From Nitrospiraceae bacterium (GTDB taxonomy: Bacteria; Nitrospirota; Nitrospiria; Nitrospirales; Nitrospiraceae): 64,000 bases of DNA. The stretch covers positions 2,990,570-3,054,569 of the forward strand of contig JAXLZB010000001.1 in assembly GCA_046351115.1 (NCBI GenBank), given 5' to 3'. Below the pieces are notes generated by a model that saw only the letters and a program-made list of their open reading frames with translations, was not told the DNA's origin and did not search any database. Of this stretch, positions 1 through 61,742 are shown piece by piece (position 1 is the first letter of the stretch; each line of letters opens with the position of its first letter). The translations under genes and the position numbers were made by a program.

Positions 1-113
1 CTCCTCCGATGCCCCTTTGTGATGGGTATCCTGGGCCAGTCGCGGACCAATGTGACCGGCGAAGCAGTCGGACAGGTCTCCGTCTTAGGAAAGAGCAGCT
101 AAAGGATTCAACT

Positions 114-22756: not shown

Positions 22757-24207
22757 AAGGGTTTCGGGTGTTGATCGTCGATGATGAGCCGCTTATGCGG
22801 CTCTCTATGGTGGACGCCCTCGAAGGGATTGGGTGCGAGGTGACGGCCGCCGCGACGGGGACGGAAGGCCTGCATGTATTGGCTACGCGTCCGTTTGATC
22901 TCGTCATCACCGATTTGCGTTTGCCCGGGGCCGACGGGTTGACGGTCCTCAAGACCAGCAAGGAACGGTCTCCCACGACCGAGGTGATCGTGATTACGGC
23001 GCATGGCTCGGTCGATACGGCCGTGGGGGCGATGAAGCTCGGCGCCTATGACTACGTGACGAAGCCCTTTCAGATGGATGAACTGCTGCTAGTGGTCGAA
23101 CGTGCGGGCAAGATCCTGGGCCTGCGCCGGGAAAACTTGGATCTCAAGGAGACGCTGGAAGAACGATTCAGCTTCGGAGGAATTCTCGGGCGCAATAACT
23201 ACATGCGGGCGTTGCTCGAGAAGATAAAGCTCGTAGCTGCCACCGATTCGACGGTCTTGATCATCGGTGAGAGCGGCACGGGGAAGGAATTGGTGGCCAA
23301 TGCTCTGCACCAGAACAGCCCTCGTCGAGATCAGCCGCTCATCAAAGTGAGCTGTGCCGCATTGCCGGAAACCTTGTTGGAAGCCGAATTGTTTGGACAT
23401 GAGAAGGGTGCCTTCACCGGCGCGCTTCGCCAGCGGCGCGGCCGGTTCGAGTTGGCTCATCGCGGCACGTTGTTCCTGGATGAGATCGGTGAAATTTCTC
23501 CCGTGGTCCAAGTCAAACTGTTGCGCGTGCTACAGGAGCGCCAGTTCGAACGAGTCGGGGGAAATGAGACGATTGAAAGCGACGTGCGCGTGGTCTGTGC
23601 GACGCAGAAAGATCTCCGTAAAGAAGTGGCGCACGGCCGGTTTCGAGAAGATTTGTACTATCGGCTCAATGTCGTCCAAATCATCGTGCCGCCGTTGCGG
23701 GAACGCCGAGAAGACGCGCTGCTGATTGCCGAGCATGTGTTGCAAACGCGTTCGACGAAGCTCTGTAAGAGTCTCAAGGGATTTGCGCAACCCAGCCGGG
23801 AATTGCTCCTGAAATACTCGTTTCCCGGCAACGTGCGTGAATTGGAGAACATGGTGGAGCGCGCCGTGGCGCTCGGGCGCGAGGGGGAGTCGGTGCAGCC
23901 CTGGGACCTGTGCGGATTTCAGTCCTGTCCGTATCTCGGAGGGGCGCCGCAGGAATCCTGCGGGTTCTGTAGCGAGGGACTGGCCATTGGCACGAAGCGC
24001 CCGGCAGAGGGCGTGACCTCGACGCTCGCGGCCGCCCGCGAACAATTTGAGCGGGACTTCATCCTGGAGGTGCTGAAAAAGGTTGATGGGAGCCGCACCA
24101 ACGCCGCCCATCTCCTGGGGCTGTCGCGAAAGGCTTTGTGGGAGAAGTGCAAACGCTACGGCATCGCATCCGCAAGGGAGGAAGCCGACGATGACGACGG
24201 CTCGTGA
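22753..24207 (+). CDS. Sigma-54-dependent response regulator (NtrC family)
   Basis: REC domain ([11 protein letters not shown]), Walker [15 protein letters not shown] loop, C-terminal Fis-type HTH. The GTG start overlaps the kinase stop (GTGA). Confidence 0.9.
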
Positions 24208-39276: not shown

Positions 39277-39531
39277 CTACTCGGCGACGATTTTCGAGCC
39301 AGGCGATTTCATCTTGAAGATTTGAATCGCGCTGTAGATGCCCTTGGCGGGATGATTGAGGATGAGCCGAGAATTGGTGATGTGAGTGTCGATCAGCTCG
39401 TACTGCCCCCCGCTGTAGAAGATGTCGCAGTCGTCGATCTGGCAGTTTTTGTAGACGTGGTTGTCCAGGCAGAGCTTGGCCTTACTGAAGTTCTGCTGAT
39501 CCACGATGATGTAGGTCGGTTCCAGTCCCAT
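39277..39531 (-). CDS. Hypothetical 84-aa protein
   Basis: gagagga SD 4-6 nt before the ATG. No recognisable motif. Confidence 0.5.
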   Translation of the reverse strand: MGLEPTYIIVDQQNFSKAKLCLDNHVYKNCQIDDCDIFYSGGQYELIDTHITNSRLILNHPAKGIYSAIQIFKMKSPGSKIVAE

Positions 39532-39896: not shown

Positions 39897-41954
39897 GTGA
39901 GTGACTCAGCGATTATCACCTTTGCATTGATTGCTGCTGCAGCGGGGATCGCGTATGGGCTCTATCTGGCGATGTGGGTGTTCAAGCTGAACGCCGGCAA
40001 TGCCAAGATGCAGGAGATCGCGAAAGCGATTCAGGAAGGCGCCAGCGCCTACATGAACCGTCAGTATAGGATGGTCGGTATGGTGGCGGCGGGTCTTTTC
40101 GTGGTGCTCTGGGGAGCCGGAGCCGTATCGGATAAGTTCGGATTTCTGACGGCAATTGGATTTCTCGTCGGTGCCGGCGCATCGGCGATCGCCGGCTATG
40201 TCGGCATGATCATCGCCGTGCGAGCCAATGTCCGAACGGCACAGGCGGCGCACGATGGAATGAATGCGGCTCTGACCGTGGCTTTCCGTGGCGGTGCCGT
40301 GACCGGTCTTCTGTTGATCGGTCTGGGCTTGCTGGCGATCACGGGGTTCTACACGCTGGCTACACAAATGGCCGGCCAGGAGAAGGCAATCCATGCGCTG
40401 CTGAGCCTTGGATTCGGTGGTAGTTTGATTTCGGTGTTTGCGCGGGTTGGCGGCGGGATCTATACGAAGGCCGCCGACGTGGGCGCAGACTTGGTCGGGA
40501 AAGTCGAAGCGGGAATTCCGGAAGACGACCCTCGCAACCCGGCGGTCATCGCCGATAACGTCGGGGACAATGTCGGCGATTGCGCCGGCATGGCGGCGGA
40601 CCTCTTCGAGACCTACGCGGTGACGACGGTCGCGGCGATGGTACTCGCCTTCACGATGTTCAAGGGACAAAGCGCTCCGATTCTCTATCCACTGGCGTTG
40701 GGTGCTGTCACGATTTTCGCCACGATCATCGGTATTCTATTCGTGAAGGTGAGCCCTGGCGGAGAGATCATGCCGGCCCTCTATAAAGGCCTGTTCGTCG
40801 CCGGTGGGATCGCAGCGGTGGCCTTCTTCCCGATCACGACGAAGGTGATGGAAGGGGTCGGGGGAGTCAGCGGCGTCAGCTACTACATCGCTGCGCTCCT
40901 CGGCTTGATCGTGACGCTGGCCCTGGTATTCATCACCGACTACTACACCTCGAAGAGCTATGCACCGGTGAAGGACATCGCTAAGGCGAGCGAGACGGGG
41001 CATGCGACGAACATCATCGCCGGCTTAGCCGTCGGCATGCAGTCGACGGCCGCGCCGGTGGTGGTGATCGCGGCGGCGATCTTGATCAGCTTCTGGATCT
41101 GCGGCGGGGCGGCCTCCGGCGGTTTGTACGGTGTGGCGGTGGCGGCGGTCTCGATGTTGTCGATGGCCGGGATCGTGGTCGCGATCGACGCATTCGGTCC
41201 GATCACCGACAACGCGGGCGGGATTGCGGAAATGTCTCACTTGGGAAAAGCCGTTCGCGACATTACCGATCCGTTGGATGCGGTCGGCAATACGACCAAA
41301 GCGGTCACGAAGGGCTACGCGATCGGCTCGGCCGGACTTGCGGCGGTGGTGTTGTTTGCCGAGTATTCACGCGAGGTCGCAGCGCATAATCCAGCCCTGG
41401 CGGCTTTTGACCTATCCGATCCAAAGGTGTTGGTCGGATTGTTCTTGGGCGGAATGTTGCCGTTTTTATTCGGCGCGCTCTGCATGAAAGCGGTGGGGCA
41501 GGCAGGCGGCTTGATTGTCGAGGAGGTTCGTCGCCAGTTCCGCACGATTAAGGGCATCATGGAAGGAACGGGGAAACCGGAATACGGGACGTGTGTCGAC
41601 ATCGTGACCCAGGCGGCGATCCAAAAGATGATGATCCCTGGCTTGATTCCGGTCGCTTCGCCGATTGTGATCGGACTCGTGCTTGGACCTCAGGCACTGG
41701 GAGGCATGCTGGTCGGCAGCATCGTGACCGGGCTTTTCGTGGCCATTTCCATGACGAGCGGGGGTGGCGCCTGGGACAATGCGAAGAAGTACATCGAAGA
41801 GCAGGGATTGAAGGGGTCGGATACCCACAAGGCTGCGGTGACCGGCGATACGGTCGGTGACCCCTACAAAGATACCGCTGGGCCTGCCGTCAATCCGATG
41901 ATCAAAGTCATCAATATCGTCGCGCTGTTGATCGTCTCACTGATCGTGCGATAG
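39897..41954 (+). CDS. hppA: Membrane-bound ion-translocating pyrophosphatase
   Basis: [18 protein letters not shown] and [15 protein letters not shown] signatures. 685 aa, GTG start after aaggag. Confidence 0.95.
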
Positions 41955-41984
41955 GGCGAGGCAGAGCCGGATCTCGTGTGTCAG

Positions 41985-42034
41985 GTCTCATTGAGCCGGG
42001 CAATTGTCCCGGCTCAATGAGACTTGTTGCTTTG
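41985..42034 (+). terminator. Rho-independent terminator
   Basis: gtctcattgagccggg / cccggctcaatgagac 16-bp perfect stem with a 7-nt loop, then ttgttgctttg. Confidence 0.85.
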
Positions 42035-42140
42035 AGGCGAGTCGGCCTTTCCTTCAATGGCTTGACGGCTTTACGAACCCTGGGGTAAGGTGACAATAGA
42101 GTGTGGAACAGCCGTGCTCAGTCCACTGGGAGGTGCTCCG

Positions 42141-42338
42141 ATGGAGAAACAAGAGAGGAGACCGGAATCCAGGAAGGAATCCCATAGCAAAGAAGAAGTA
42201 AAGCCGAATCCGAAAGTCGTCGAGTCCGGCAAGAAGATGAAAGAGGACATCGATAAGTTGGTCGATGAAATCGACGACGTGCTCGAAAAAAATGCGGAAG
42301 AATTCGTGAAAAATTACGTGCAAAAAGGGGGCGAATAG
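42141..42338 (+). CDS. pup: Prokaryotic ubiquitin-like protein Pup (C-terminal GGE)
   Basis: 65 aa. DIDKLVDEIDDVLEKNAEEFVKNYVQKGGE matches the conserved Pup C-terminal half. gggaggtg SD. The ORF-track start 42090 is less likely. Confidence 0.85.
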   Translation: MEKQERRPESRKESHSKEEVKPNPKVVESGKKMKEDIDKLVDEIDDVLEKNAEEFVKNYVQKGGE

Positions 42339-42479
42339 CCGCCCCCCCGTTCCGTCTCCCTTCAGCAGCGCCTCCATCCCCCAAACCCTCCCTGAGGTCG
42401 TGCCGCAGTTCTCCGGTCCTTTCCGATGAGTTCCTGCATCGCTGTGCAGGCCGGCGTGTTCAGATGAGATCTGAGTGGT

Positions 42480-42508
42480 TTGACAATCCGTAAGCGAGCC
42501 GATAACAT
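42480..42508 (+). promoter_or_regulatory. Candidate sigma-70 promoter (TTGACA-N17-TAACAT)
   Basis: -35 at 42480..42485 and -10 at 42503..42508, upstream of recJ. Confidence 0.35.
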
Positions 42509-42553: not shown

Positions 42554-44269
42554 GTGGTCATGCGACAAAAGCTTTGGGTCTTTCGTCCGTCAAATCCCGC
42601 ACTCCAGATGAATCTGTCTCGAGCCTTGTCAATTTCCCCTGTCACAGCCTCGATCTTGATGGCAAGGGGCGTGACGTCGGCGGATGAGGCGACGCGCTGG
42701 ATGTCCGGAGATCAAGGTGGGCTCCATGATCCTTTCCTGTTGCCGGATATGGAGGCGGCGATCGATCGGCTCCAACGGGCTTTGCGCGGAAATGAGCGTG
42801 TCTGTTTTTACGGCGACTATGATGTGGACGGAGTCTCGGCTACCAGTTTGTATCTTTCGTTTTACCGGGGGCTTGGGGGGCAGGCGATACCCTACATCCC
42901 CCATCGGGTGCAGGAAGGATATGGGCTCAACGAAGCCGCGATACGGCACTTGTCGCAAGAGGGGGTGACGCTGCTCATCACGTCCGATTGCGGGACGACT
43001 TCGCATCGGGAAATCGCGCTGGCGGCGCAACTCGGAATCGATGTCGTGGTGACGGATCACCATCAAACCGACGAGACGATGCCATCTGCGGTCGCGGTAT
43101 TGAACCCGCATCGCCGCGACGCGCGCTATCCGTTTCGTGGACTCTGCTCGGCTGGGCTGGCCTACAAGGTCGTATCGGCCTACTGCAGGAAATACGGTGC
43201 CGGTGAATTGCCGCCGGAATCCTTTCTGGATTTGATGGCGTTGGCCACGGTGGCGGATGTCGTCCCGTTGCAGGATGAAAACCGCATCCTCGTCCGTGAA
43301 GGACTGGCGCAGCTCACACGCGGCGCGCGCTGTGGGGTGCGGGCCCTCAAGCAGGTCGCCGGTATTACAAAACCTTGCACGGCCGAGACCGTTGCGTTTC
43401 GTTTGGGCCCGCGACTGAATGCGGCCGGTCGTCTGGATCATGCGCTTGCCTGCGTTCGACTACTTACGACCGAGTCCGACTATGAAGCCAAAGAGCTTGC
43501 CGACCACCTGGAGCAACTGAATCGGCGGCGACAAGAAATCGAAGAAGACATCACTCGGGAAGCGGGCGAGCAATTGGCGCAGGACGAGTCTCGATCGGCG
43601 ATCGTGTTGGCGTCCTCGAAATGGCACTTGGGCGTGGTGGGGATCGTCGCGGCCCGTCTTGTCGACCGGTTCCACAAACCGAGCATCGTCATGGCCATCA
43701 ACGAGAAGGGGCTCGGGAAGGGGTCGGCGCGGACGGTCGAGGGGTTCGATTTGTACCAGGGGTTGACGGCTTGCCGCGAGCTCCTCGATGCTTACGGCGG
43801 ACACCCAAGCGCGGCCGGCCTTACGATTCAGGCCTCGCGGATCGAAGAGTTCCGCCGGCGCTTCGATGAGGTGGCCACTGCCTGGGCGGGGGCGGCTCCC
43901 TCGCAGCCGACTCTGCACGTTGATGCGGAGGTCAATCTGACGGACGTGAATTTCGGGCTCATCCGGGAATTGGAGTCGCTGCACCCATTCGGCGCGGGCA
44001 ATCCCGAGCCGACGCTGGCTGTGCGGGGATTGCAGGTGTTGGAGGCCCGGGTGGTGGGCGAGAAACACCTCAAGTTGCGGGTTCGTCAAGGCCGGTCCTT
44101 GACGTTCGACAGCATCGGGTTTCGCATGGGATCGTTTGAGGAGTTGGGGCTCACAACGAGCAAGCCGGTGGATCTGGCCTTTAGTCCGGAGCGGAATCAT
44201 TGGAACGGCTACGACCGTCTGCAATTGCGTATCAGAGCATTGCGGATGACGGAGGGAGTGTCCTCGTAA
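42554..44269 (+). CDS. recJ: Single-stranded-DNA-specific exonuclease RecJ
   Basis: FYGDYDVDGVSA and VTDHH (DHH family) motifs. Confidence 0.9.
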   Translation: MVMRQKLWVFRPSNPALQMNLSRALSISPVTASILMARGVTSADEATRWMSGDQGGLHDPFLLPDMEAAIDRLQRALRGNERVCFYGDYDVDGVSATSLYLSFYRGLGGQAIPYIPHRVQEGYGLNEAAIRHLSQEGVTLLITSDCGTTSHREIALAAQLGIDVVVTDHHQTDETMPSAVAVLNPHRRDARYPFRGLCSAGLAYKVVSAYCRKYGAGELPPESFLDLMALATVADVVPLQDENRILVREGLAQLTRGARCGVRALKQVAGITKPCTAETVAFRLGPRLNAAGRLDHALACVRLLTTESDYEAKELADHLEQLNRRRQEIEEDITREAGEQLAQDESRSAIVLASSKWHLGVVGIVAARLVDRFHKPSIVMAINEKGLGKGSARTVEGFDLYQGLTACRELLDAYGGHPSAAGLTIQASRIEEFRRRFDEVATAWAGAAPSQPTLHVDAEVNLTDVNFGLIRELESLHPFGAGNPEPTLAVRGLQVLEARVVGEKHLKLRVRQGRSLTFDSIGFRMGSFEELGLTTSKPVDLAFSPERNHWNGYDRLQLRIRALRMTEGVSS

Positions 44270-46452
44270 TGCCGCACGAGACGGTGACCCGGCTCGACCA
44301 ACTGATCGAGCGTGTCAAAAGCTACAACGTCGACGCAGATCTGGACCTGGTAAAGCAGGCCTATGAATTTTCCGCCAGGGCTCATGAAGGCCAGACCCGG
44401 CGGTCGGGAGAGCCGTATCTTCAACATCCACTGGCCGTCGCGGGCCTCCTGACGCATCTCAAGACCGATGTGGCCGCGATTGTGGCGGGGCTGTTGCATG
44501 ACACGCTGGAGGATACGCTGGCGACGCCGGCCGAACTCGAACAGCGGTTCGGCAAGGATGTGGTCCACCTGGTGGACGGCGTCACGAAGATCGGAAAAAT
44601 TACCTTCCGGAGCTACGAGGAAAAGCAGGCCGAAAATTTTCGCAAGATGGTCCTCTCGATGGCGGACGACATCAGGGTCGTCCTCATTAAGCTGGCCGAC
44701 CGGCTGCACAACATGCGCACGCTCGAGTACCTGAGCGAGCGCAAGCGGCATGAGATCGCCCAGGAAACGCTCGAAATTTACGCCCCGCTGGCGAATCGGT
44801 TGGGGATCGGTTGGATCAAGAACGAACTCGAGGACCTCTGTCTCAAGCATTTGAAGCCGGAGGTGTATGAGCAGCTGCGGATTCGCGTGGCGAAGCGGGA
44901 TGAAGATCGCCAGCAGTACATTCAGGAAGTGATCGAGGTGGTGAAGGGTGCCATTGCCGAAGCGGGCCTCACCGGCGATGTCTATGGGAGGCCGAAGCAT
45001 CTGTACGGCATCTACCAGAAGATGGAAAAGCAATCGATTACCTTCGAGGAGGTCTACGACCTCGCGGCGCTTCGGATCATCACCGATACCAAGATGAGCT
45101 GTTATGCCCTGTTGGGGGTCATCCATTCGCTCTGGCGGCCGCTGCCCGGCCGCTTCAAGGACTACATTGCGATTCCCAAGTCCAACCTGTATCAGTCCCT
45201 GCATACCACTGTAGTTGGCCCAAAAGGTGAGCACGTGGAGTTCCAGATCCGCACGGAGGAAATGCATCGCGTGTCGGAGCACGGCATCGCCGCCCATTGG
45301 AAGTACAAAGAGCAGGGCCGCATCGACGAAAAAGACGGCAAGGTGTTCAGTTGGTTGCGGCAGTTCGTGGAATGGCATCAGGATCTTCCGGACAACCGGC
45401 AATTCATGGATTCCGTGAAGCTCGATCTGTTTCACGACGTGGTCTACGTGTTTACGCCCAAGGGCATGGTCAAGGAGTTGCCCAAAGGGTCGACGCCGGT
45501 CGATTTTGCCTATTCGATCCATACCGAGATCGGAGACCATTGCGTCGGCGCCAAGGTCAACGGGAAGATCGTGCCGCTGAAGCATTCGATGGAGAGCGGT
45601 GATACCATTGAAATTTTGACCTCGCCCAACCAAACGCCGCACAAGGATTGGCTGAAGTTCGTCCGTACGTCTCGGGCCAAGACCAAGATCAAACATTGGA
45701 TCAAGGCGGAAGAGCAGGCGCGGAGCGTGGAAATCGGCAAACGCCTACTGGAGGCCGAGTTCCGTCGCCACGGGCTGGCACCGGCCCAGATGATTCGCTC
45801 GGAACAGCTGCTGGAGGTGGCGAAGCAGGCCGGGTATGAAACGACCGAAGAGTTGGCTGCCGCCGTGGGATTCGGGCATCTCCCGACCTCTCAAATCATC
45901 AGCAAGTTCACCTCCACGGTGCCGGCCGAGACGCAGCCGACGCAAGTCGAGCCGGAGTCGCCCCAGAAACCCGTCGCGGGCAAAGCCGACCATCAAGGTG
46001 TTCAAGTCAAAGGCGCGCGCGATCTTCTCATGCAGCTTTCACGTTGCTGCAACCCCGTTCCCGGTGATCGAATTTTGGGTTACATCACGAGAGGGCGTGG
46101 GCTTACGATTCACACTATCGATTGTCCGAATCTCGAGGCGTTGGACTACGATAAGAACCGGTTGGTGGAAGTCGAGTGGGATTTGGCCATGCCGGGGACC
46201 CATGCAGTCAAGGTCTCGGTCATCGCGGTCGATAGGACGGGCGTGTTGGCAAACGTGTCGGCAGCCATTGCCGAATGTTCCGCCAACATCAGTCGTGCGG
46301 AAATCACAACCAGGGAAGACCGTAAGGCTGTCCTCGATTTCGTCATCGAGATTACGGATACGGCCCATTTGCATCGGGTCCTGAAGACAATCGAAAAGGT
46401 CGATGGTGTCATCACTGCCCGCCGAGTTCGGTCGTGGCAGGAGCGGGCATGA
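44269..46452 (+). CDS. rel: Bifunctional (p)ppGpp synthetase/hydrolase (RelA/SpoT homologue)
   Basis: HD domain (HPLAVAG...HDTLEDT), synthetase YQSLHTTV, TGS and ACT regions. ATG 44269 overlaps the recJ stop (TAATG); the ORF-track start is 44200. Confidence 0.9.
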   Translation: MPHETVTRLDQLIERVKSYNVDADLDLVKQAYEFSARAHEGQTRRSGEPYLQHPLAVAGLLTHLKTDVAAIVAGLLHDTLEDTLATPAELEQRFGKDVVHLVDGVTKIGKITFRSYEEKQAENFRKMVLSMADDIRVVLIKLADRLHNMRTLEYLSERKRHEIAQETLEIYAPLANRLGIGWIKNELEDLCLKHLKPEVYEQLRIRVAKRDEDRQQYIQEVIEVVKGAIAEAGLTGDVYGRPKHLYGIYQKMEKQSITFEEVYDLAALRIITDTKMSCYALLGVIHSLWRPLPGRFKDYIAIPKSNLYQSLHTTVVGPKGEHVEFQIRTEEMHRVSEHGIAAHWKYKEQGRIDEKDGKVFSWLRQFVEWHQDLPDNRQFMDSVKLDLFHDVVYVFTPKGMVKELPKGSTPVDFAYSIHTEIGDHCVGAKVNGKIVPLKHSMESGDTIEILTSPNQTPHKDWLKFVRTSRAKTKIKHWIKAEEQARSVEIGKRLLEAEFRRHGLAPAQMIRSEQLLEVAKQAGYETTEELAAAVGFGHLPTSQIISKFTSTVPAETQPTQVEPESPQKPVAGKADHQGVQVKGARDLLMQLSRCCNPVPGDRILGYITRGRGLTIHTIDCPNLEALDYDKNRLVEVEWDLAMPGTHAVKVSVIAVDRTGVLANVSAAIAECSANISRAEITTREDRKAVLDFVIEITDTAHLHRVLKTIEKVDGVITARRVRSWQERA

Positions 46453-51664: not shown

Positions 51665-52954
51665 TTAGAGCCAGTTGACCCGTTCTGCGGGTCGGATGTA
51701 GATCGGCTCTTCGACCTGAATGCGCGCCACTTCCTTGCCCGACTTGTTGAAGCCCAGCACGGTGTCGTTATACATGTCGAATCGCTTCCCGTGGATCTGG
51801 GTTTCGAACACTTTCGGGCCCGGAATGACGTCGTACCGGAAGATGATCTGCTGGCTGGCGCGCCACAATTGCAGCACCGCCAACAGTTCGCGGCTCGGCA
51901 CGAGATACTTCTCGATCGCATTGTCGACGCCCGGCCCGAACATCTGCCGGTTGTAGCCCCGCGGCGCGTGCCGCGGCGGAATATAGTACCCGTTGGGCTC
52001 CGTCCCCCATTGCGGGAACAGCGGCAAGGCCACCTGCTCCACGCGGATCGTGTAGTACAGGGGATGCCACCGGTCTTCCGCCCAGAGGCCGTCTTCGCCG
52101 ATGCGCACCAGGCTCTGCATGCGAATCTTGCCCACGCAGGCCGCCATACAGCGCGTTTCCATCGGCTCGCCGCCCGTCAAGGGGTCTTTGCCCTCGATGC
52201 GCGGATAGCACGCAATGCACTTTTCCGACACCCGGGTCGTGCCCCGGTACATCGGCTTCTTGAACGGGCACTGTTCCACGCACTTCTTGTACCCGCGGCA
52301 CCGGTTCTGGTCGATCAACACGATGCCGTCTTCCGGCCGCTTGTAGATCGCCTTGCGCGGGCAGGCTGCCAAGCAGCCCGGATACGTGCAGTGGTTGCAA
52401 ATGCGCTGGAGGTAGAAGAAGTACGTCTCGTGTTCCGGCAAGCTTGAGCCGGAGAGCCGCCACGGTTCGTCCCGGGAGAACCCGGATTTATCGATGTTTT
52501 CCACGAGCGCCCGCATCGAGGTCGCCGTGTCTTCATAGATGTTGACGAACCGCCACTCCTGGTCCGTCGGGATGTAGCCGATCGCCGCCTGGCCCACCTT
52601 GGCGCCCGCGTCGAAAATGGTCATCCCTTCGAACACCCCGTACGGGGCATGGTGCTTGCGGCCGACCCGCACGTTCCATACCTGGCCGCCCGGGTTCACC
52701 TGCTCGATGAGCTGGGTGATCTTCACGTCGTAGAACTGGGGATACCCGCCGTACGGCTTGGTCTCCACGTTGTTCCACCACATATACTCCTGGCCCTTGG
52801 AGAACAGCCAGGTCGACTTGTCCGCCATCGAACAGGTCTGACAGGCCAAACAGCGATTGATGTTGAACACAAAGGCAAACTGCCACTTCGGATGCCGCTC
52901 CTCGTAGGGATACAGCATCTTTCGTCCCAGGTGCCAGTTATACACTTCAGGCAT
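51665..52954 (-). CDS. nxrB: Nitrite oxidoreductase beta subunit (Nitrospira type)
   Basis: 429 aa, MPEVYNWHLGRKMLYPYEERHPKWQFAFVFNINRCLACQTCSMADK. Fe-S motifs CNHCTYPGCLAACP and CRGYKKCVEQCP. No signal peptide. Confidence 0.95.
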   Translation of the reverse strand: MPEVYNWHLGRKMLYPYEERHPKWQFAFVFNINRCLACQTCSMADKSTWLFSKGQEYMWWNNVETKPYGGYPQFYDVKITQLIEQVNPGGQVWNVRVGRKHHAPYGVFEGMTIFDAGAKVGQAAIGYIPTDQEWRFVNIYEDTATSMRALVENIDKSGFSRDEPWRLSGSSLPEHETYFFYLQRICNHCTYPGCLAACPRKAIYKRPEDGIVLIDQNRCRGYKKCVEQCPFKKPMYRGTTRVSEKCIACYPRIEGKDPLTGGEPMETRCMAACVGKIRMQSLVRIGEDGLWAEDRWHPLYYTIRVEQVALPLFPQWGTEPNGYYIPPRHAPRGYNRQMFGPGVDNAIEKYLVPSRELLAVLQLWRASQQIIFRYDVIPGPKVFETQIHGKRFDMYNDTVLGFNKSGKEVARIQVEEPIYIRPAERVNWL

Positions 52955-53025
52955 TGGAAATCCTCCTTCTCATGATCAGATGGTTGTCTGTTGTGAGCTT
53001 CCTCAAGGCTTCCATCGCTCGTCGT

Positions 53026-53059
53026 GCGTGAAGCGTGGTTTGCGATCGACGCTTCACGC
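53026..53059 (-). other. Intercistronic hairpin between nxrA and nxrB
   Basis: gcgtgaagcgt / acgcttcacgc 11-bp perfect stem with a 12-nt loop, 10 nt after the nxrA stop. Confidence 0.45.
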
Positions 53060-53068
53060 GCGCCGCCG

Positions 53069-56000
53069 TTAGACTTTGATCTTGATGTGCTCGCCTTTGA
53101 GCCACTTGATCATGAACTCGTTTTCCTGACCCGGCGTGAAGCCCGTCCGGACCGGTTCCCACGGCCCACGCGCCCCGATGCCGCCGTCTTCCGCCTTGGT
53201 GATGCGGATCAAGCATTCCTTCGGGACCGTGTTGATCGCGTGGTGGTCGACCTGATAGCCCCACTTGAACTTCCAGGCAATCGCGTGTTTGCCCGGCAGC
53301 GAGTCGGTTTGGTGCATCGGCATCAACCAGTTCCGGGTAAAGGACTGTTGGGCCCCATACCGGAAGTTGGACTGATAGCCGGTGTCCACCGCGATGGCGC
53401 GGCCGTCCGGTCGCGTCTCGTGGCCCTTCACCGACTTCGGCGTCGACACGTACGGGGCGTGCTTCGCCATCGTGACGTGGTACGGATACGCCGGGTTGTA
53501 CTTGGCGCGGATCATCAAGCGCGCGACCTTGTAGTACGGATCCGAGGGCTTCCAGCCGCGGTACGGCCGGTCCACCGGGTTGCCGTCGACATACACGTAG
53601 TCGCCGTCGTTGATGCCGCGATCCTTCGCGGCCTGCGGGTTGATGTGGATCTGGTGCTCGCCGACGCCCGGCGTCCGCTTGTCCATGCGGTAGGGATCGC
53701 CGAAGTTCGACTCGTAAATCTGCACCCAGTCGTTCACCGACCACTGGCTGTGGACCCGGTGGCGGGTCTTCGGGGTGACGCAGTAGAACTGGTACCCTTT
53801 TTCCCACAACGGGTTCGCATGCCGTTTGATTTCTCCCCACGGCAACTTGATGTTGCGCACGTGTTTGTCGTCATGGTGCTGCGCCGTGATCGGAATCCCG
53901 TAGTCGTCCGGGCGGACGTACGGGTTGCTCGTCATGATCGCGTTCGGGAGGTAGGGCGTACATTCCGGCCCTTCCCGATGGACGACGAAGTTTTCGCCGT
54001 ACTCGATCGCCTCCGGTTCGATCCGGTAGGTCTCGATCCGGCCCGACCGCGTCCACTGAGGTTTCGACTCGTTGGTTTCTTCCCAGAGCGGATGGCGCGG
54101 ATAGGTGCGGCCCATGACCATCCAGCCCTTTTCCGACTTCAACATGACGTCGGCGCTGTATCCGTAGCAGGTTGAGCTGGCGTCCAGCATCCGCTGCGGG
54201 TACACATCGACGCGGTTCATATAGACGAAATGGAACACGCCGCGGAAGCGGGCATCGCCCGTTATCTCCGTCAACTTGGATGCGACACCGGCGAATGTGT
54301 CGGCATCGTTGCGGGTGTCGTACAACGGCCGGATGCCGCCCTTCCAGATCTGCACCCACGGATTGGACACCGTGGCCGTCATTTCCGGATAGGTGAATTC
54401 CATCCAGCTGTTGCAGGCAAACGCCACATCGGCGTGGTTGACGTCGGATGTCATCTCGATGTCCTGGGTCACGATCATCTCGATGTTCGGGTCGACGTTC
54501 TTCACCATGTCGTAGTGGTGTTTCGCGTTGTTCAGGATGTTCACATTCGTGACCCACCGGACCTTGCTGGGGCTCGGCATGTGGGTCTTGCCGGTGAACA
54601 CCTTGCGTCCGTACTTCGGCGTGTTGACGATCAAGGCCGTGTCGCCGTGGTTCCAGTACCCGACCTCTTCGCCGTAGTAGTACGACTTGGTCTTGATTTC
54701 CTTGCCATGGGCATTGGGGTCCAACGTAAGGTTGAACGGATCTTCTCCCGTATGCACGGCGAGGCCGGCGCCGGACCACGGCACCGCGTTCCAGATGCCG
54801 GCTTTGTAGTTGCCGGACCAGGTGTGGCATCCGGTGCCGAACTTGCCGATATTCCCGGTCAGAGTGAGCACCATGGCTGCCGCACGCCCCATTTCCGTCA
54901 TGTGGAAGTAGTGGCAGACGCCTTCGCCGTTGTGCATCGCGGCCGGCTTGACCGTGCCCGAGTCGCGCGCCCACCGGACAATGAGATCCTTCGGCGCCCG
55001 GGTGATTTGATGCGTCGTATCCAGGTCGTAGTCCTGGAGGTGGACCAAGTACAGCTGGTAGATCGACATGACGTCGACCTCCCGACCGTTCAAGAGCTTC
55101 ACGCGGAACGTCCCGGTCAGGGCCGGGTCGATACCGCTGGCCTTGAAATGAACTCCGACCATTTCACGATGGATGGGGACCGCCTTGCCCTTGGCCAGAT
55201 CCCACACCATCATCCCGCCGAGCCGCTCGATCTGGTCCGGCTTGAGGGATTGGATGCGTCCGGAATAGCTCTTGGAAAAATCCGGCAGCTTGTAGTCCGC
55301 GATGACGTCGCGCGGATCGAGGTATTGCAGCGTATCCGTGCGGACGAGAAGCGGGAGGTCCGTGAAATCCTTGATGTAGTCGATATCCTGCATGTTCTCG
55401 TCGAGAATGATCTTGCAGGCACCGAGGAAGTGTGCGGCATCGGTTTCTGGCCGCAGCGGAATCCAATAGTCGGCCCGATAGGCCGTCGGATTGTATTCCG
55501 GCGTGATGACGACGATCCGGGCGCCGCGCTCGATCGACTCGAGTTTCCAGTGGGCTTCCGGCATCTTGTTCTCGACGAAGTTCTTCCCCCAGCTGGTGTT
55601 CAGTTTGGAGAAGCGCATGTCGTTGAGATCGATGTCGCAGTTCTGCGTGCCGTTCCACCAGGGGTGGGACGGGTCCTGGTCGCCGTGCCAGGTGTAATTC
55701 GAGTAATACTTGCCGCCTTGCGCTTTATCCGGATCAACCTTCCGGATGAATGTGTCGAGGAGAGGCAGGCATCCGCCGTTAAACCTGGTGTTCATCATCT
55801 TGCCGACGATGCCCAGCACCGGCATGCCCGCGCGATGCTTGAAGCACCGCACGCCCGCGCCCTTCATCATCTCGATCATTTCCGGGGCATAGCCCTGCTC
55901 GCGCAACCGCCTCGCACCGGACTCCCCGCTGTACCGCGTCGCGATCACGATGCAGGCCTTGGCCACATACGTAAACGCCGTGTCCCAGGAGACCCGATTC

Positions 56001-56512
56001 ATGTCGTCGAGGAAGCGGCTGTCGAATTTGTATTTGCGTTTGACGTCCGGCGTCAGCTCGGGGGAGCCGTCGTCCATCCACTGCTTCCAGCCCTTCCGCA
56101 TTAACGGCCCCTTCAACCGATAGGGTCCGTACACGCGGCGATGGAAGGTGAACCCCTTCAGGCACATGCGCGGGTTGTGCGCGAATGTCCCGCGATTGCC
56201 GTAGAGGTCCTCATAGGTTTGGTGATCGTAGTTCTGCTCGACCCGCATGACGACGCCGTTCCGGACGAAGGCCCGGACGCGACAGCCGTGGGTATCATTC
56301 GGCGAGCAGCACCACGTAAACGACGAGTCATACCGGTACTGGTCATGGTAGACGCGCTCCCACGACCGGTCCGGATACTCGCCCAGCGGGTTCCCGACTT
56401 CCACGACCGGCTGCAGCGCGGTCAGCGCCAGGACTTTATCCGCCACGGCGATCGCCGCGACGGTTCCCACCGTCACTTTGAGAAATTGTCTCCGTGAAAC
56501 GGAAACGTGCAT
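53069..56512 (-). CDS. nxrA: Nitrite oxidoreductase alpha subunit (periplasmic, Mo-bis-MGD, Tat-exported)
   Basis: MHVSVSRRQFLKVTVGTVAAIAVADKVLA Tat signal. WCCSPNDTHGCR Fe-S motif. About 1147 aa. ATG 56512 with aaggagg 8 nt upstream; the ORF-track TTG is at 56518. Confidence 0.95.
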   Translation of the reverse strand: MHVSVSRRQFLKVTVGTVAAIAVADKVLALTALQPVVEVGNPLGEYPDRSWERVYHDQYRYDSSFTWCCSPNDTHGCRVRAFVRNGVVMRVEQNYDHQTYEDLYGNRGTFAHNPRMCLKGFTFHRRVYGPYRLKGPLMRKGWKQWMDDGSPELTPDVKRKYKFDSRFLDDMNRVSWDTAFTYVAKACIVIATRYSGESGARRLREQGYAPEMIEMMKGAGVRCFKHRAGMPVLGIVGKMMNTRFNGGCLPLLDTFIRKVDPDKAQGGKYYSNYTWHGDQDPSHPWWNGTQNCDIDLNDMRFSKLNTSWGKNFVENKMPEAHWKLESIERGARIVVITPEYNPTAYRADYWIPLRPETDAAHFLGACKIILDENMQDIDYIKDFTDLPLLVRTDTLQYLDPRDVIADYKLPDFSKSYSGRIQSLKPDQIERLGGMMVWDLAKGKAVPIHREMVGVHFKASGIDPALTGTFRVKLLNGREVDVMSIYQLYLVHLQDYDLDTTHQITRAPKDLIVRWARDSGTVKPAAMHNGEGVCHYFHMTEMGRAAAMVLTLTGNIGKFGTGCHTWSGNYKAGIWNAVPWSGAGLAVHTGEDPFNLTLDPNAHGKEIKTKSYYYGEEVGYWNHGDTALIVNTPKYGRKVFTGKTHMPSPSKVRWVTNVNILNNAKHHYDMVKNVDPNIEMIVTQDIEMTSDVNHADVAFACNSWMEFTYPEMTATVSNPWVQIWKGGIRPLYDTRNDADTFAGVASKLTEITGDARFRGVFHFVYMNRVDVYPQRMLDASSTCYGYSADVMLKSEKGWMVMGRTYPRHPLWEETNESKPQWTRSGRIETYRIEPEAIEYGENFVVHREGPECTPYLPNAIMTSNPYVRPDDYGIPITAQHHDDKHVRNIKLPWGEIKRHANPLWEKGYQFYCVTPKTRHRVHSQWSVNDWVQIYESNFGDPYRMDKRTPGVGEHQIHINPQAAKDRGINDGDYVYVDGNPVDRPYRGWKPSDPYYKVARLMIRAKYNPAYPYHVTMAKHAPYVSTPKSVKGHETRPDGRAIAVDTGYQSNFRYGAQQSFTRNWLMPMHQTDSLPGKHAIAWKFKWGYQVDHHAINTVPKECLIRITKAEDGGIGARGPWEPVRTGFTPGQENEFMIKWLKGEHIKIKV

Positions 56513-56684
56513 AGCCAATACCTCCTTGTAAGGCAGATCAATGATTCATGGTGCTGTTCGTGCCATCGAGTCGGCCGGTCCGCAGAACATCTGTGATCAC
56601 CTCCCTTCGCGTGGTCGGATGGAAACATCTCGTTGCGGAACCGGTTGTAATCGTGCGAACAGCGCATGACGGGGTATGGGAATA

Positions 56685-56965: not shown

Positions 56966-58402
56966 TCAGGATTTACTGACGTCCTGCCCGGCATCTTTGA
57001 GATAGCGCCGCATGATTTCATGAAAATAAGAGCGAGGGAGGCCGGCCTCCTGTGCGGCGTGGGTGACATTGCCGTGATGGATCGAGAGCTTGGCGGAGAT
57101 GTATCGATGGTTGAATGCGGCGAGGATCTGCTCCTTGGCCTTCGCATATGGAAGGTGAAGGTAATCTTCCATTCCGTCCGCTCCTCGCCGGTCGGGAGAC
57201 TGCAGCAGCCCTGAGACGTCTGTCACGGCGATTCGATTGCTCTTGGCCAGCATGACCGCGCGCTCCATGACGTTGCGGAGCTCGCGCACGTTACCGGGCC
57301 AGGGATAGGCAACCAATTCGGTGACGGCCGACGGATGAATATCGTCGGTGTGCTTGCTGAATTCCTTGGCATAGCGCGACATGAAATGCCGAGCCAAGAC
57401 GGGGATGTCTTCCGGCCGTTCGCGCAGGGGCGGGACGCGGATGACCATGACGTTGAGCCTGAAAAACAGGTCCTTGCGAAATTCGTTGCGCTTGACCTTT
57501 TCGGCCAGGTCCTGGTTCGTGGCTGCGACGAACCGGACATTCACCTTCTTTTGCTGGGTGCTGCCGACTGCTCGAACCTCGCCCTCTTCCAGCACCCGTA
57601 GGAGCTTGGCTTGCAAGTTGGCGGGTAGGTCTCCGATCTCGTCGAGAAAGACCGTGCCGCGGCTTCCGGACTCGATCAGGCCGGTCTTGTCCGACACCGC
57701 CCCAGTGAATGCCCCGCGCACATGGCCGAAGAGTTCGCTTTCGACGGTGCCCTCGGCAAATGTCGTGCAGTCGACCACTTGAAAGGGGCCGTCACGCTCG
57801 GCGCTGCGCTCATGGATGGCCTTTGCGATCAACTCTTTTCCGGTACCGGTTTCACCGATGATGAGCGTGGTCGAAGGGACTTTGGCGATGGCTTCGATCA
57901 TCTGCATCACGTTCTTGATCGGCGGGCTGACTCCGACCAGATCCTTGAACGGCATCGGCTGGCTGTCGGTCCCGTTGGGCTCGGTGTGCCGAAGAATATC
58001 GGCCATGCGCATGGCACGGTGGATGCGGGCGGCCAGATCCATCGCGTCGAACGGTTTGACCACGTAATCGAACGCGCCGTGGCGCATGGCATCGATTGCG
58101 GTATCGACCGCATTGACCCAGCTGACGACGATGACCGGGATGCGGCGGTTCATATCCTGGACCCGCCGGAGCAACTCGATGCCGCTCATCCCGGGTAACC
58201 GAACGTCCGTGATGATGAGGTCGATCGGTTCGTGGGAGAGGCGCTCCAATCCACCTTCAGCCGTTGCGTTGATCAATAATTCCACTTCCTCATCCTCATG
58301 GCGAGGCAGTTCGTGTTCCACGGCGCGAAGGAACATCTCGACGTCGCCGCCGTTGTCCTCGATCAACAGGATGGTGAAGGTTGAGGGCTTGGTCGTGGGC
58401 AT
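56966..58402 (-). CDS. Sigma-54-dependent response regulator (NtrC family)
   Basis: REC (DLIITDVRLPG), Walker A GETGTGKE, GAFTGA, C-terminal HTH. Confidence 0.9.
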   Translation of the reverse strand: MPTTKPSTFTILLIEDNGGDVEMFLRAVEHELPRHEDEEVELLINATAEGGLERLSHEPIDLIITDVRLPGMSGIELLRRVQDMNRRIPVIVVSWVNAVDTAIDAMRHGAFDYVVKPFDAMDLAARIHRAMRMADILRHTEPNGTDSQPMPFKDLVGVSPPIKNVMQMIEAIAKVPSTTLIIGETGTGKELIAKAIHERSAERDGPFQVVDCTTFAEGTVESELFGHVRGAFTGAVSDKTGLIESGSRGTVFLDEIGDLPANLQAKLLRVLEEGEVRAVGSTQQKKVNVRFVAATNQDLAEKVKRNEFRKDLFFRLNVMVIRVPPLRERPEDIPVLARHFMSRYAKEFSKHTDDIHPSAVTELVAYPWPGNVRELRNVMERAVMLAKSNRIAVTDVSGLLQSPDRRGADGMEDYLHLPYAKAKEQILAAFNHRYISAKLSIHHGNVTHAAQEAGLPRSYFHEIMRRYLKDAGQDVSKS

Positions 58403-58404
58403 GG

Positions 58405-60447
58405 CTAGCCTCTTTCAGCTTGATAGGACAGGTTGGAGAGCAGGGATGCAGATTGGGGCGAGCCAGTTCCACGTTCGGCGGACTTACCGCCGGGAACCGG
58501 GAGACGGAACTGGAATCGGCTGCCGATGCCTGGCGTGGAATCGACCCAGATGGCCCCCTCGTACTGTTCGACCACGGTCTTGACGATAGACAATCCGATG
58601 CCTGCGCCGGGGATATCGGCGGTGCAGAGCCGTTGAAACGGCTCGAAGATCCTTGCCGTCATCGCGGGATCGATGCCCATGCCGTTGTCGTCTACATAGA
58701 TCACCGCGCCGTGCGGGGAGGGATCCCAACCGATGTCCACACGCGGATGCGGCTGCGTACCCATATATTTGATGGCGTTCCCGATTAAATTTTCCAGCAC
58801 CTGTTTGAGGTGGATACGGCGGCAGGCCAGCCGCGGAAGATTGTCAGCAATCGTCACGGTTACCCTGGCCGCCTGGGCCAGGGGCGCGAGTAAATCCAGC
58901 ACTTCCTTCACGACCGCCTGCGTATCGACGCTTTCCAACGGGCTGGGAACCGCCGTGATGCGAGCCAGGTCCAATGTGCGTTCCGCCAGCTGTGCGAGAT
59001 CGCGTCCCTCCTTCTTGATCCATTCGAGATAGCGCCGTCCTTTGTCGTCCAGTCGGCTGCCGTAGTCCGATTCGATCCAGGATGCGAATTCCGCGACGCG
59101 GCCGGCTGGCGCCTTCACCTCGTGAGTCAGCTCCGCGACGTTGCGTTCGACGGCGTGCAGCTTCGCGCGGAGGAGATGTGACTCGGACTGCAGCGCGTCG
59201 AACAGCCGTGCATTCTCGATGGTGACCGCCGCATAGGCCGCGAATTGCTGCGCCAGCCTGATATCCCATTCGCTGAAGGACCGCTGGGTCCCAGTGCTCA
59301 GGAGGGTCAGCACGCCGATGCAGTCGTGCGGCCCGAGCAGCGGGACGGCCAGATAGCTTTGTGCTCCGAACTCGTCGCGAAAGTGAATCAGGCGATCATG
59401 GCAGCTGCCGACATCGGCGACCACGACCGGACGTTTGGTCTCGTACGCTTCGTTGGAAAATGGGGTTTCTTCGGTGAGGAGAATCTGTTTGCGGATGGTG
59501 TCGAAGGCTTGTCCTGATGCGGCCTCCACGATCCAACATTCCAAGACGGAGTGGCGGACCATAATGACGGCCATGTCTACCCGGACGAGGTCGGCTGCGC
59601 GGTCGACGATACGTCGCAGCACCTGCTCGATACCTCCGATGCCGAGTGTGCTGATCTCTTGGCCGGTCGCATGGAGCGCTTCCAGCTCCTCGATGCCCTG
59701 CCTGGTTCGCTGCGCCATATGTTCGAAAGTGCGGGCTAGGCGACCGAGCTCGTTCGACGACTGCACGGCAAGCGTGGTGTTCAGGTCTCCCGCCGCAAGC
59801 CGCTCGGCTCCCCGGGTCAGTTCCTGGAATGGTCGGCGGATCGTCCGGTGGAACAGGATGAAGGCGCCTCCCAGCAGTCCGGCCGACAGGATTAGAAAAA
59901 GAATTTGTAGGGCATAGAGGGTCTTCGTTCTCGCTGCGGCATTGCGTTCGAGGCTGTGCACCATGACCGAAAGGGCATCGACGAATTCATCGGCGTGCCG
60001 GAGGTATTCCTGCTGAGCCAGTTCCAGTTGCATCCCGGATGCTCTGGTTGCCGATTCGATCGACGGGCGGAGCTGCAGGTCCCAACGGTCTTGCAGCCCC
60101 TGAATCTGCCCCATCACCGAGGGCTCGATCTCGCCGATCGGGGCATGATCGGCCGTGCCGTATCGCAAGCCGGTCAGGACTTTCTCCCATCGTGCCGTTT
60201 CCTGGGTAATGAGGTCGCGAAGTGTCGCTTCCTGCTGGGGGGCCGACAGTTGCAGCAGCAGCGAAGCCAGCCGGTAGATACGCATCCGTTCCGTTCCGGC
60301 TTGATCGATCGCGGTACTGATTCCGATCAGCTGTGCCGCCATGTAGGAGGAAACGAGCAACAGGGCGCTGTACATGAGGAACACCAGGAGGAAGGTGGCA
60401 CCGATCTGAGCGATCAACGAAGAGCGGAAGGTTCGGAATCGGCGCAT
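58405..60447 (-). CDS. Sensor histidine kinase with a NarX/NarQ-type periplasmic P-box domain, HAMP, GAF, HisKA, HATPase
   Basis: Start ATG 60447 (the ORF-track extension to 60930 overlaps the upstream gene). P-box AIDQAGTERMRIYRL, HAMP, GAF, H-box THEVKAP, G-box GAGIGLS. Confidence 0.85.
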   Translation of the reverse strand: MRRFRTFRSSLIAQIGATFLLVFLMYSALLLVSSYMAAQLIGISTAIDQAGTERMRIYRLASLLLQLSAPQQEATLRDLITQETARWEKVLTGLRYGTADHAPIGEIEPSVMGQIQGLQDRWDLQLRPSIESATRASGMQLELAQQEYLRHADEFVDALSVMVHSLERNAAARTKTLYALQILFLILSAGLLGGAFILFHRTIRRPFQELTRGAERLAAGDLNTTLAVQSSNELGRLARTFEHMAQRTRQGIEELEALHATGQEISTLGIGGIEQVLRRIVDRAADLVRVDMAVIMVRHSVLECWIVEAASGQAFDTIRKQILLTEETPFSNEAYETKRPVVVADVGSCHDRLIHFRDEFGAQSYLAVPLLGPHDCIGVLTLLSTGTQRSFSEWDIRLAQQFAAYAAVTIENARLFDALQSESHLLRAKLHAVERNVAELTHEVKAPAGRVAEFASWIESDYGSRLDDKGRRYLEWIKKEGRDLAQLAERTLDLARITAVPSPLESVDTQAVVKEVLDLLAPLAQAARVTVTIADNLPRLACRRIHLKQVLENLIGNAIKYMGTQPHPRVDIGWDPSPHGAVIYVDDNGMGIDPAMTARIFEPFQRLCTADIPGAGIGLSIVKTVVEQYEGAIWVDSTPGIGSRFQFRLPVPGGKSAERGTGSPQSASLLSNLSYQAERG

Positions 60448-60578
60448 AGATGCCGCTCGCCTCCGTGGTGACAAACCAACACTCCGTCCCGCGTGGCGGA
60501 TGCGGGACGATCGGCTCGGGCCTAGATACCCTATCGTAGGAGGGGACCTATCGCTAATCAACCCCCCATCAACTTGCA

Positions 60579-61742
60579 TCACTTCTCGAATAACAACATA
60601 AGATAAGCCAGAAACAGCAGCAGGTGGACGGCTCCGAGCAGGACGTTGGTGCGGCGCGCCGCAAACGTCAGCATGCTGAGGACGACCGTGAGGAGGAGGA
60701 GTGTCGTATCGACCTCGTCGAGCCCCAGGATGATTGTGGATCCTCGGAGGAAGCCGATGGTGAGCACGGCGGGAATCGTGAGGCCGATGCTCGCCAGGAC
60801 GGAGCCGAGGAGGATGTTTACGGATCGTTGCAGCTGATTGGCCAAGGCCGCCCGCACGGCACCAAAGGATTCCGGCGCCAGCACCATCGCTGCGACCAAC
60901 ACGCCCCCCAATGCAGGCGGAGCTTGCCATTGATGGAGAAAGTAGTCGATCGGCACCGCGGCATGCTCGGCTAAGAGGACAAGCGGGACCAGATACCCCA
61001 GCAACAGGGCTCCATGGGCCCAGAGCGGTTTGGCTGGGGCGCCGTCCCGTTGCGGCTGTCGGGGAAACGCCCGTCCGGATCGCTTGGGGGCGAGAAAGTA
61101 GTCACGATGGCGTAGGTTTTGAATAGCCAGGAATACGCCATAGAGGCCCAGCGACATGACGATCAAGAACGCCGACAGTCTGGGTGAGTAGGTGGGACCC
61201 GGTGAGGAGAGCGTATAGTTCGGCATGACGAGTCCGAGGACTGCGAGCGGCACAATCACGGCCAGAAAGGCATTGGCCCCTTGCAGGTTATAGCTTTGCT
61301 CATGGTAGCGAAGCCCGCCGAGCACCAGCGAGAGGCCCACCATTCCGTTCAGCACGATCATCACCACCGCGAACATCGCGTCGCGTGCCAACGAGGGGTT
61401 GCCTGATTCCGTATACATGAAGGCGCTGATCATCACGACTTCGATGCCGGTAACGGAGAGGGTGAGGATGACGGTTCCGACCGGTTCCCCCAGCCTGGTG
61501 GCCAGGGCTTCGGCATGGTGGATGGCCGAGAAGGCCGAGGTCAGGATGGCAAACAGCAGCCAAGCCAATAGGGCCATGAGTTGGAGCGGACGGTCGAAGT
61601 CGCTGAGCCACTCGTCGCCGTATGCGACGAACAACAGGGCCGTCGTAATCGGGAGTATCAGCAGTGCTTGCCCGAACGACCCTGTTCTTTGGCCGGCGGG
61701 CGGGACCTCGGGGAGGGCTGCTGTGTCGGCCGGTTTGATCAT
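60579..61742 (-). CDS. chaA: Cation/proton antiporter, CaCA family (ChaA-like)
   Basis: 11-TM protein. AIHHAEALATRLGEPVGTVILTLSVTGIEVVMISAF resembles the ChaA signature region. Confidence 0.75.
   Translation of the reverse strand: MIKPADTAALPEVPPAGQRTGSFGQALLILPITTALLFVAYGDEWLSDFDRPLQLMALLAWLLFAILTSAFSAIHHAEALATRLGEPVGTVILTLSVTGIEVVMISAFMYTESGNPSLARDAMFAVVMIVLNGMVGLSLVLGGLRYHEQSYNLQGANAFLAVIVPLAVLGLVMPNYTLSSPGPTYSPRLSAFLIVMSLGLYGVFLAIQNLRHRDYFLAPKRSGRAFPRQPQRDGAPAKPLWAHGALLLGYLVPLVLLAEHAAVPIDYFLHQWQAPPALGGVLVAAMVLAPESFGAVRAALANQLQRSVNILLGSVLASIGLTIPAVLTIGFLRGSTIILGLDEVDTTLLLLTVVLSMLTFAARRTNVLLGAVHLLLFLAYLMLLFEK

Follow-up and report, generated by a model that had tools for sequence, protein, structure and literature searches.

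A pup gene set apart from the pupylation and proteasome gene cluster in Nitrospira

The window (the whole stretch of 64,000 nucleotides of Nitrospiraceae DNA that was analyzed) contains a pup gene at positions 42141-42338 of the forward strand. It is very probably the functional, and probably the sole, pup of a complete Pup-proteasome system in a nitrite-oxidizing Nitrospira, relocated from a gene cluster that lies elsewhere on the chromosome. The original prediction described an orphan pup gene; it is an orphan only in that the gene was relocated in this lineage, the system being otherwise canonical and complete. Both the protein and pupylation itself are already known in kind, and the difference lies in gene organization, so that no new kind of biology is shown.

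The gene is an ATG-initiated open reading frame (ORF) of 65 codons plus the stop codon, the latter included in the coordinates, and its product, MEKQERRPESRKESHSKEEVKPNPKVVESGKKMKEDIDKLVDEIDDVLEKNAEEFVKNYVQKGGE, is 65 amino acids long with the C-terminal end FVKNYVQKGGE. The predicted Shine-Dalgarno sequence was confirmed as GGGAGG (42128-42133, + strand), 7 nt 5' of the ATG. The region around it, GGAGGTGCT, is invariant in 8/8 aligned Nitrospira genomes, and GGAGGTGCTCCGATG is found in 7/8. A longer frame of 82 amino acids starting at a GTG at 42090 was rejected because the DNA 5' of the ATG diverges by indels, while the spacing between the Shine-Dalgarno sequence and the ATG is kept across species. 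Two antisense ORFs (42054-42377 and 42118-42384) were rejected as well, since it is only in the + frame that substitutions from genome to genome are silent.

Profile searches accept the product as Pup, as had been proposed from the sequence. It matches the Pfam Pup family (PF05639) with E=3.3e-21 and 76.4 bits, against a curated cut-off of 27 bits, and the NCBIfam equivalog-domain model TIGR03687 with 62 bits, against a cut-off of 41.45 bits. Its length of 65 residues and its QKGGE terminus agree with the size and ending of the Pup family (50-90 amino acids and a C-terminal G-G-[EQ]). The Pup of Mycobacterium tuberculosis (Rv2111c; 3M91/3M9D, 7OY3) belongs to the same family and is of similar size (approximately 64-65 amino acids). 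Residues 28-65 of the window protein align without gaps to the M. tuberculosis Pup chains in Mpa complexes (3m91, 3m9d, 7px9), while residues 38-65 can be aligned both to the Pup peptides of 7oy3/7oxy and to the Pup part of the PafA-Pup fusion 4bjr. The gapless part comprises the C-terminal 38 residues (DEIDDVLExNAExFVxxYVQKGG), and 24 aligned positions are invariant or identical between the two proteins. According to this alignment, the segment of Pup in contact with the Mpa coiled coil and with the groove of PafA/Dop is present, and the corresponding binding is predicted. In contrast, the N-terminal half of the Nitrospira protein is Lys-rich and unrelated in sequence to that of M. tuberculosis Pup.

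The C-terminus differs between the two as well: Nitrospira Pup ends in GGE, whereas M. tuberculosis Pup ends in GGQ. A terminus ready for ligation had been proposed, and the translation agrees with it, ligation itself being predicted. Among the 120 closest clusters of Nitrospira-type Pup proteins, 87 have a GGE end and 25 a GGQ end. Because the two forms coexist, the need for deamidation by Dop apparently switches between close relatives, as in actinobacteria. The usual context of a pup gene, adjacent to dop, prcB or pafA, is not found at the window pup, but such adjacency is a feature of that context and not of the Pup protein family; its absence is what sets this locus apart. In public databases (NCBI, JGI), these proteins carry the name 'ubiquitin-like protein Pup [Nitrospira sp.]'. 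Judged by its sequence, 42141-42338 is thus a genuine pup gene, encoding an ordinary Pup that is already annotated as such.

The gene is real and under strong purifying selection, its N-terminal half included. Comparison with ten other loci revealed 14-21 synonymous and 0 non-synonymous codon differences in pup. The exact 65-amino acid protein recurs in 152 blocks of the sequence collection, and the gene order hppA-pup-recJ-relA was found in 10/10 inspected places with the identical protein, at a DNA identity to the window of only 76-86%. In the seven more distant of these ten loci, the identity to the window is 91-93% for HppA, 87-88% for RelA and 76-79% for RecJ; among the same seven, the five carriers of an MscS-like channel show 65-69% identity for that protein. 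Contig JAHBWI010000010.1 of assembly GCA_019637075.1 matches the window at 100% identity over 22,058 bp.

The position of pup just after the hppA terminator and upstream of recJ and a rel gene was correctly predicted. The upstream neighbor, hppA (39897-41954, + strand), encodes a membrane H+-pyrophosphatase (PF03030 in the matching locus). Just 3' of its stop codon, a consensus scan identified a terminator-like hairpin (41982-42026, + strand) with a 19-bp stem containing 11 G-C pairs, followed by TTGCTTTG, a T-rich tail; the hairpin is common to the window and its closest relative. This terminator-like structure would end the hppA transcript and isolate pup from hppA transcription. Between the hairpin and pup lies a promoter-like block (42062-42091, + strand) that consists of TTGACG (42062-42067), an 18-nt spacer and TAAGGT (42086-42091). 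The -10-like element TAAGGT of the window is TAATGT in most relatives. The block GGCTTGACG-N-CCCTrGrGTAAkGTGAC is kept in 7/8 Nitrospira genomes, amid intergenic DNA that is poorly conserved. A sigma-70 consensus scan gave no match upstream of pup, and it missed this block because the -10 element agrees with the consensus at only 3/6 positions. Cross-species conservation, the sole basis for the assignment, suggests that the block is the pup promoter, with a weak -10 element.

On its 3' side, pup is directly followed by a C-rich, G-poor tract (42339-42430, + strand), and the consensus scan found no intrinsic hairpin terminator after the gene. The first 90 nt after pup contain 44 C versus 17 G. 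The C/G ratio after pup is 1.4-2.6 in 8/8 genomes, compared with 0.86 for the + strand of the whole window. This tract may serve as a Rho-dependent termination region. Farther downstream is a sigma-70-type promoter of recJ-relA (42480-42508, + strand), TTGACA-17-TAACAT, which has 10/12 consensus matches and is the sole match of the sigma-70 scan in the region. Between this promoter and recJ is a conserved leader, TTCCCCTTACTTCTCAGTCACTTCTGA. Both elements are well conserved in 7/8 aligned genomes, while the remaining one (locus L091) shares only GTTTGACAA; apart from these elements, the pup-recJ gap (203-249 nt) is poorly conserved. No matches to Rfam were found in the whole window at gathering thresholds, and hence no known riboswitch or small RNA lies near pup.

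The genes downstream are recJ (42560-44269, + strand; DHH/DHHA1/RecJ_OB) and relA/spoT (44269-46452, + strand; HD_4/RelA_SpoT/TGS/ACT), with coordinates transferred from a locus (L106) that is 100% identical to the window. They overlap by one base (44269), which suggests translational coupling, and the pair is kept in all related loci. Like hppA, these two genes are context rather than parts of the Pup system. Because it is set between a terminator and the recJ promoter, pup looks like a small transcription unit of its own.

The original prediction also considered co-regulation with the stringent-response gene downstream. A pup-recJ-relA operon, in which tag supply would be tied to the stringent response, could be imagined from the common strand of the three genes, the lack of a hairpin terminator after pup and the synteny kept in every examined locus. 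Such an operon is unlikely, however, as the conserved promoter and leader stand between pup and recJ, the tract after pup resembles a Rho-loading site, and the rest of the gap is poorly conserved. Read-through could co-transcribe pup with recJ-relA, although the evidence does not favor this. Since a separate conserved promoter precedes recJ, the proposed co-regulation of pup and rel is unsupported.

The separate location of pup could itself be adaptive. Tag supply would then be set by a conserved, dedicated promoter, apart from the levels of the ligase and the proteasome, and the N-terminal half of Pup might have an additional, lineage-specific partner or role. That half, which is disordered and normally variable, is unchanged between species at this locus. 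We consider this adaptive reading quite unlikely; if true, the extra role could be, for example, regulatory, non-degradative pupylation in slow-growing, starvation-prone nitrite oxidizers.

The remaining components of the system are absent from the window, as had been predicted. Searches with tblastn using Nitrospira queries for Mpa, Dop, PrcB, PrcA and PafA gave only short, spurious matches in the 64 kb (best E 0.04-0.1), so that dop, prcB and pafA are absent from the 42 kb upstream and the 22 kb downstream of pup. Pfam scans of 20 of the larger ORFs of the window identified no pupylation-system family either; the families found are cytochrome bd-like oxidases, cytochromes c, ArgRS, SecD, histidine kinases, sigma-54 activators, an MscS/cNMP channel, an Na/Ca exchanger and AcrB.

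The genus, however, encodes the complete set. PafA relatives were searched for with the N. moscoviensis sequence from a published Dop/PafA alignment (supplement of PMC7947786). The species-representative genome collection contains 582 of them, and the best 80 of the 582 are all from Nitrospira or Nitrospiraceae, with 90-97% identity. The genomes bearing these 80 include what we take to be comammox metagenome-assembled genomes (MAGs). One contig (CAADGK010000064.1), titled 'uncultured Nitrosospira sp. isolate CMX', encodes a PafA with 92% identity to the N. moscoviensis protein and is probably a mislabelled comammox Nitrospira MAG.

On chromosome OZ245008.1, the gene order is thiG-thiE-mpa-dop-prcB-prcA-pafA-M23 peptidase, and all five products of the system pass the NCBIfam equivalog cut-offs: Mpa (TIGR03689, 737 bits), Dop (TIGR03688, 543 bits), PrcB (TIGR03690, 299 bits), PrcA (TIGR03691, 310 bits) and PafA (TIGR03686, 563 bits). 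The partner set of M. tuberculosis Pup is thus also present in Nitrospira at the equivalog level. Around the best 80 of the 582 pafA relatives, a tblastn search at E<=10, covering up to 10 kb on each side as far as the contig permitted, found a pup-like sequence at 0/80 loci. In two further contigs with gene tables (L094 and L104), the gap between dop and prcB is 81 bp and 39 bp, respectively. Across these 80 loci and two contigs, the Nitrospira cluster thiG-thiE-mpa-dop-prcB-prcA-pafA has no pup between dop and prcB, nor any within 6-10 kb of pafA. In OZ245008.1 and in L094 and L104, a gene for Lon protease follows another 4-6 kb downstream, on the opposite strand.

Both loci occur together on one contig of a congener. 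Ga0438285_000012 (310,166 bp) bears pup at approximately 255.2-255.4 kb and mpa-dop-prcB-prcA-pafA at approximately 206.0-212.4 kb, on the same strand and approximately 43 kb apart. Its pup is 83% identical to the window pup and has the same hppA-recJ context; indeed, every examined Nitrospira-type pup sits between hppA and recJ-relA. That the window lacks the cluster is what one would expect, as it runs only 22 kb past pup on that side. By analogy with its congeners, the genome from which the window derives is inferred to contain the cluster, and as Nitrospira clusters contain no pup, the window pup is probably the only one of this genome.

The original prediction had left a choice between a second copy of pup and a dispersed pupylation system. 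The latter stands, with a pup-less cluster located elsewhere, whereas the second copy finds no counterpart at any of the 80 pafA loci. It is very improbable that the window gene is an extra, stand-alone paralogue beside a canonical pup between dop and prcB. Duplicated parts have been reported in some organisms, and Leptospirillum ferrooxidans has two full copies of the system (PMC3511204). Nevertheless, no pup-like sequence lies near pafA in the Nitrospira loci, the short gaps between dop and prcB are just those 81 bp and 39 bp, and the window Pup matches the in-cluster Pup of sister lineages colinearly at 65-71% identity, as would be the case for an orthologue.

That the protein is a Pup-like relic, no longer conjugated after loss of the ligase from the genome, is barely credible. 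The lack of any pupylation gene in the 64 kb would fit such a relic, but the protein shows 0 amino acid changes across species whose neighboring proteins differ by 7-35%, PafA is present and conserved at 90-97% across the genus (best 80 of 582 relatives), and the congeneric contig carries both loci. The original prediction had named the lack of a PafA homologue as the sign of a relic. At the genus level PafA is found throughout Nitrospira, with pafA in 80/80 listed genomes (the best 80 of the 582 relatives), so that a cognate ligase exists there.

The functional pup of a complete, dispersed system thus remains the preferred explanation, and the sister lineages suggest how it came about. Among Nitrospiria, contigs with a PafA 78-79% identical to the N. 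moscoviensis protein (L097, L098, L105, L099 and L100) have the same cluster with a 66-amino acid ORF between dop and prcB; NCBI names them 'Nitrospiria bacterium' and 'Candidatus Manganitrophaceae'. The in-cluster ORFs of L097 and L099, the two that were scanned, pass TIGR03687. The in-cluster Pup proteins of L097, L105 and L099 are those colinear with the window Pup at 65-71% identity; two end in GGE and one in GGQ. In these three loci, pup occupies the canonical dop-pup-prcB slot within the same flanks as in Nitrospira (thiG-thiE-mpa-dop on one side, prcB-prcA-pafA-M23 peptidase on the other), whereas Nitrospira has nothing in that slot and carries pup between hppA and recJ. The Nitrospiraceae contigs with 84-88% PafA identity (L104 and L094) have no in-cluster pup. 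Since sister Nitrospiria keep a pup of 65-71% identity in the slot, the gene probably moved in an ancestor of the Nitrospiraceae. The simplest reading is probably a single relocation in the lineage leading to this family, after which the slot closed. Its phylogenetic placement is coarse because it is based on classes of PafA identity and not on a tree. In the examined Nitrospiraceae and sister Nitrospiria (L011-L105), thiamine genes, (thiS)-thiG-thiE, stand before the cluster and an M23 peptidase gene comes after it.

In the proposed scenario, pup would have left the dop-prcB slot in the Nitrospiraceae ancestor and would have settled between hppA and recJ-relA as a small transcription unit of its own. 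The further steps follow the characterized mycobacterial and actinobacterial pathway (PMC3511204), from which the biochemistry of Nitrospira pupylation is inferred. Pup would be made with a C-terminal Glu, and because this terminus is already GGE, deamidation would be unneeded. PafA would activate the C-terminal Glu with ATP and join Pup to lysines of substrate proteins. The Mpa ATPase would bind the conserved C-terminal half of Pup and thread the disordered N-terminus into the PrcAB 20S proteasome. Dop would remove Pup as a depupylase, and would also act as the deamidase in relatives with a GGQ Pup (25 of the 120 closest clusters).

UBact is a Pup homologue described in Gram-negative phyla and reported in Nitrospirota. 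Likewise small and disordered, this tag ends in G[EQ] and occurs in Gram-negative hosts with Mpa, Dop, PafA and a proteasome. That the window protein is such a modifier rather than Pup proper is extremely improbable even in a Gram-negative member of the Nitrospirota, as it passes the Pup-specific equivalog-domain model TIGR03687, has a Pup-type FVxxYVQKGG[EQ] end matching that of M. tuberculosis Pup, and is already accounted for by Pup models over its whole conserved region.

Knowledge of pupylation in Nitrospirae dates back to 2008 (PMC2588565; PMC7947786). Iyer et al. 2008 described pup as 'invariably' adjacent to a PafA-family gene (PMC2588565), and Barandun et al. 2012 called the pupylation gene order 'rigidly conserved' (PMC3511204). 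Nitrospira keeps the order mpa, dop, prcB, prcA, pafA of the canonical pupylation locus (PMC2588565; PMC3511204) and is a genus-wide exception to it for pup only; in M. tuberculosis, pup is located beside dop and prcB, unlike in Nitrospira. No paper describing the split arrangement in Nitrospira was found in a literature coverage that is incomplete. The observation corrects the textbook view of an invariant pupylation gene order. For annotation, it advises caution: neither an 'orphan' pup nor a pup-less pupylation cluster is to be equated with an incomplete system. Pupylation has been studied mainly in actinobacteria, where pup and the proteasome genes are co-transcribed. Nitrospira, a key genus of nitrite oxidizers and comammox organisms, offers a natural case of a tag gene split from an intact system, and it would be convenient for asking whether tag supply is regulated apart from the enzymes.

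Several other features of the window deserve mention. On the - strand, 51665-56518 contains an nxrB-like gene (429 amino acids, Fer4_11) and an nxrA-like gene (1149 amino acids); in matching loci, the product of the latter is of the molybdopterin type and bears a TAT signal. The end of contig JAHBWI010000010.1 falls close to the start of nxrB (approximately 52051 in the window), as is typically seen when an assembly breaks at a repeated copy of nxrAB. At two separate places, a sensor histidine kinase is paired with a sigma-54-dependent response regulator. One of these pairs (56966-60930, - strand) is directly beside nxrA and comprises a HAMP-GAF kinase of 840 amino acids and an activator of 477 amino acids. 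The other is located upstream (19580-24207, + strand) and comprises a dCache-PAS kinase of 1058 amino acids and an activator of 484 amino acids.

Two paralogous cytochrome bd subunit-I-like proteins are encoded at 9-2000 (+ strand, 663 amino acids) and 5537-7471 (+ strand, 644 amino acids). Both match PF01654 over approximately 240 residues only, and cytochrome c genes lie alongside. Between the multihaem cytochrome genes and hppA is an ORF of 84 amino acids (39277-39531, - strand) that has no Pfam match. An ORF at the same position, always of 84 amino acids, is present in every related locus, and it may encode a conserved small protein.
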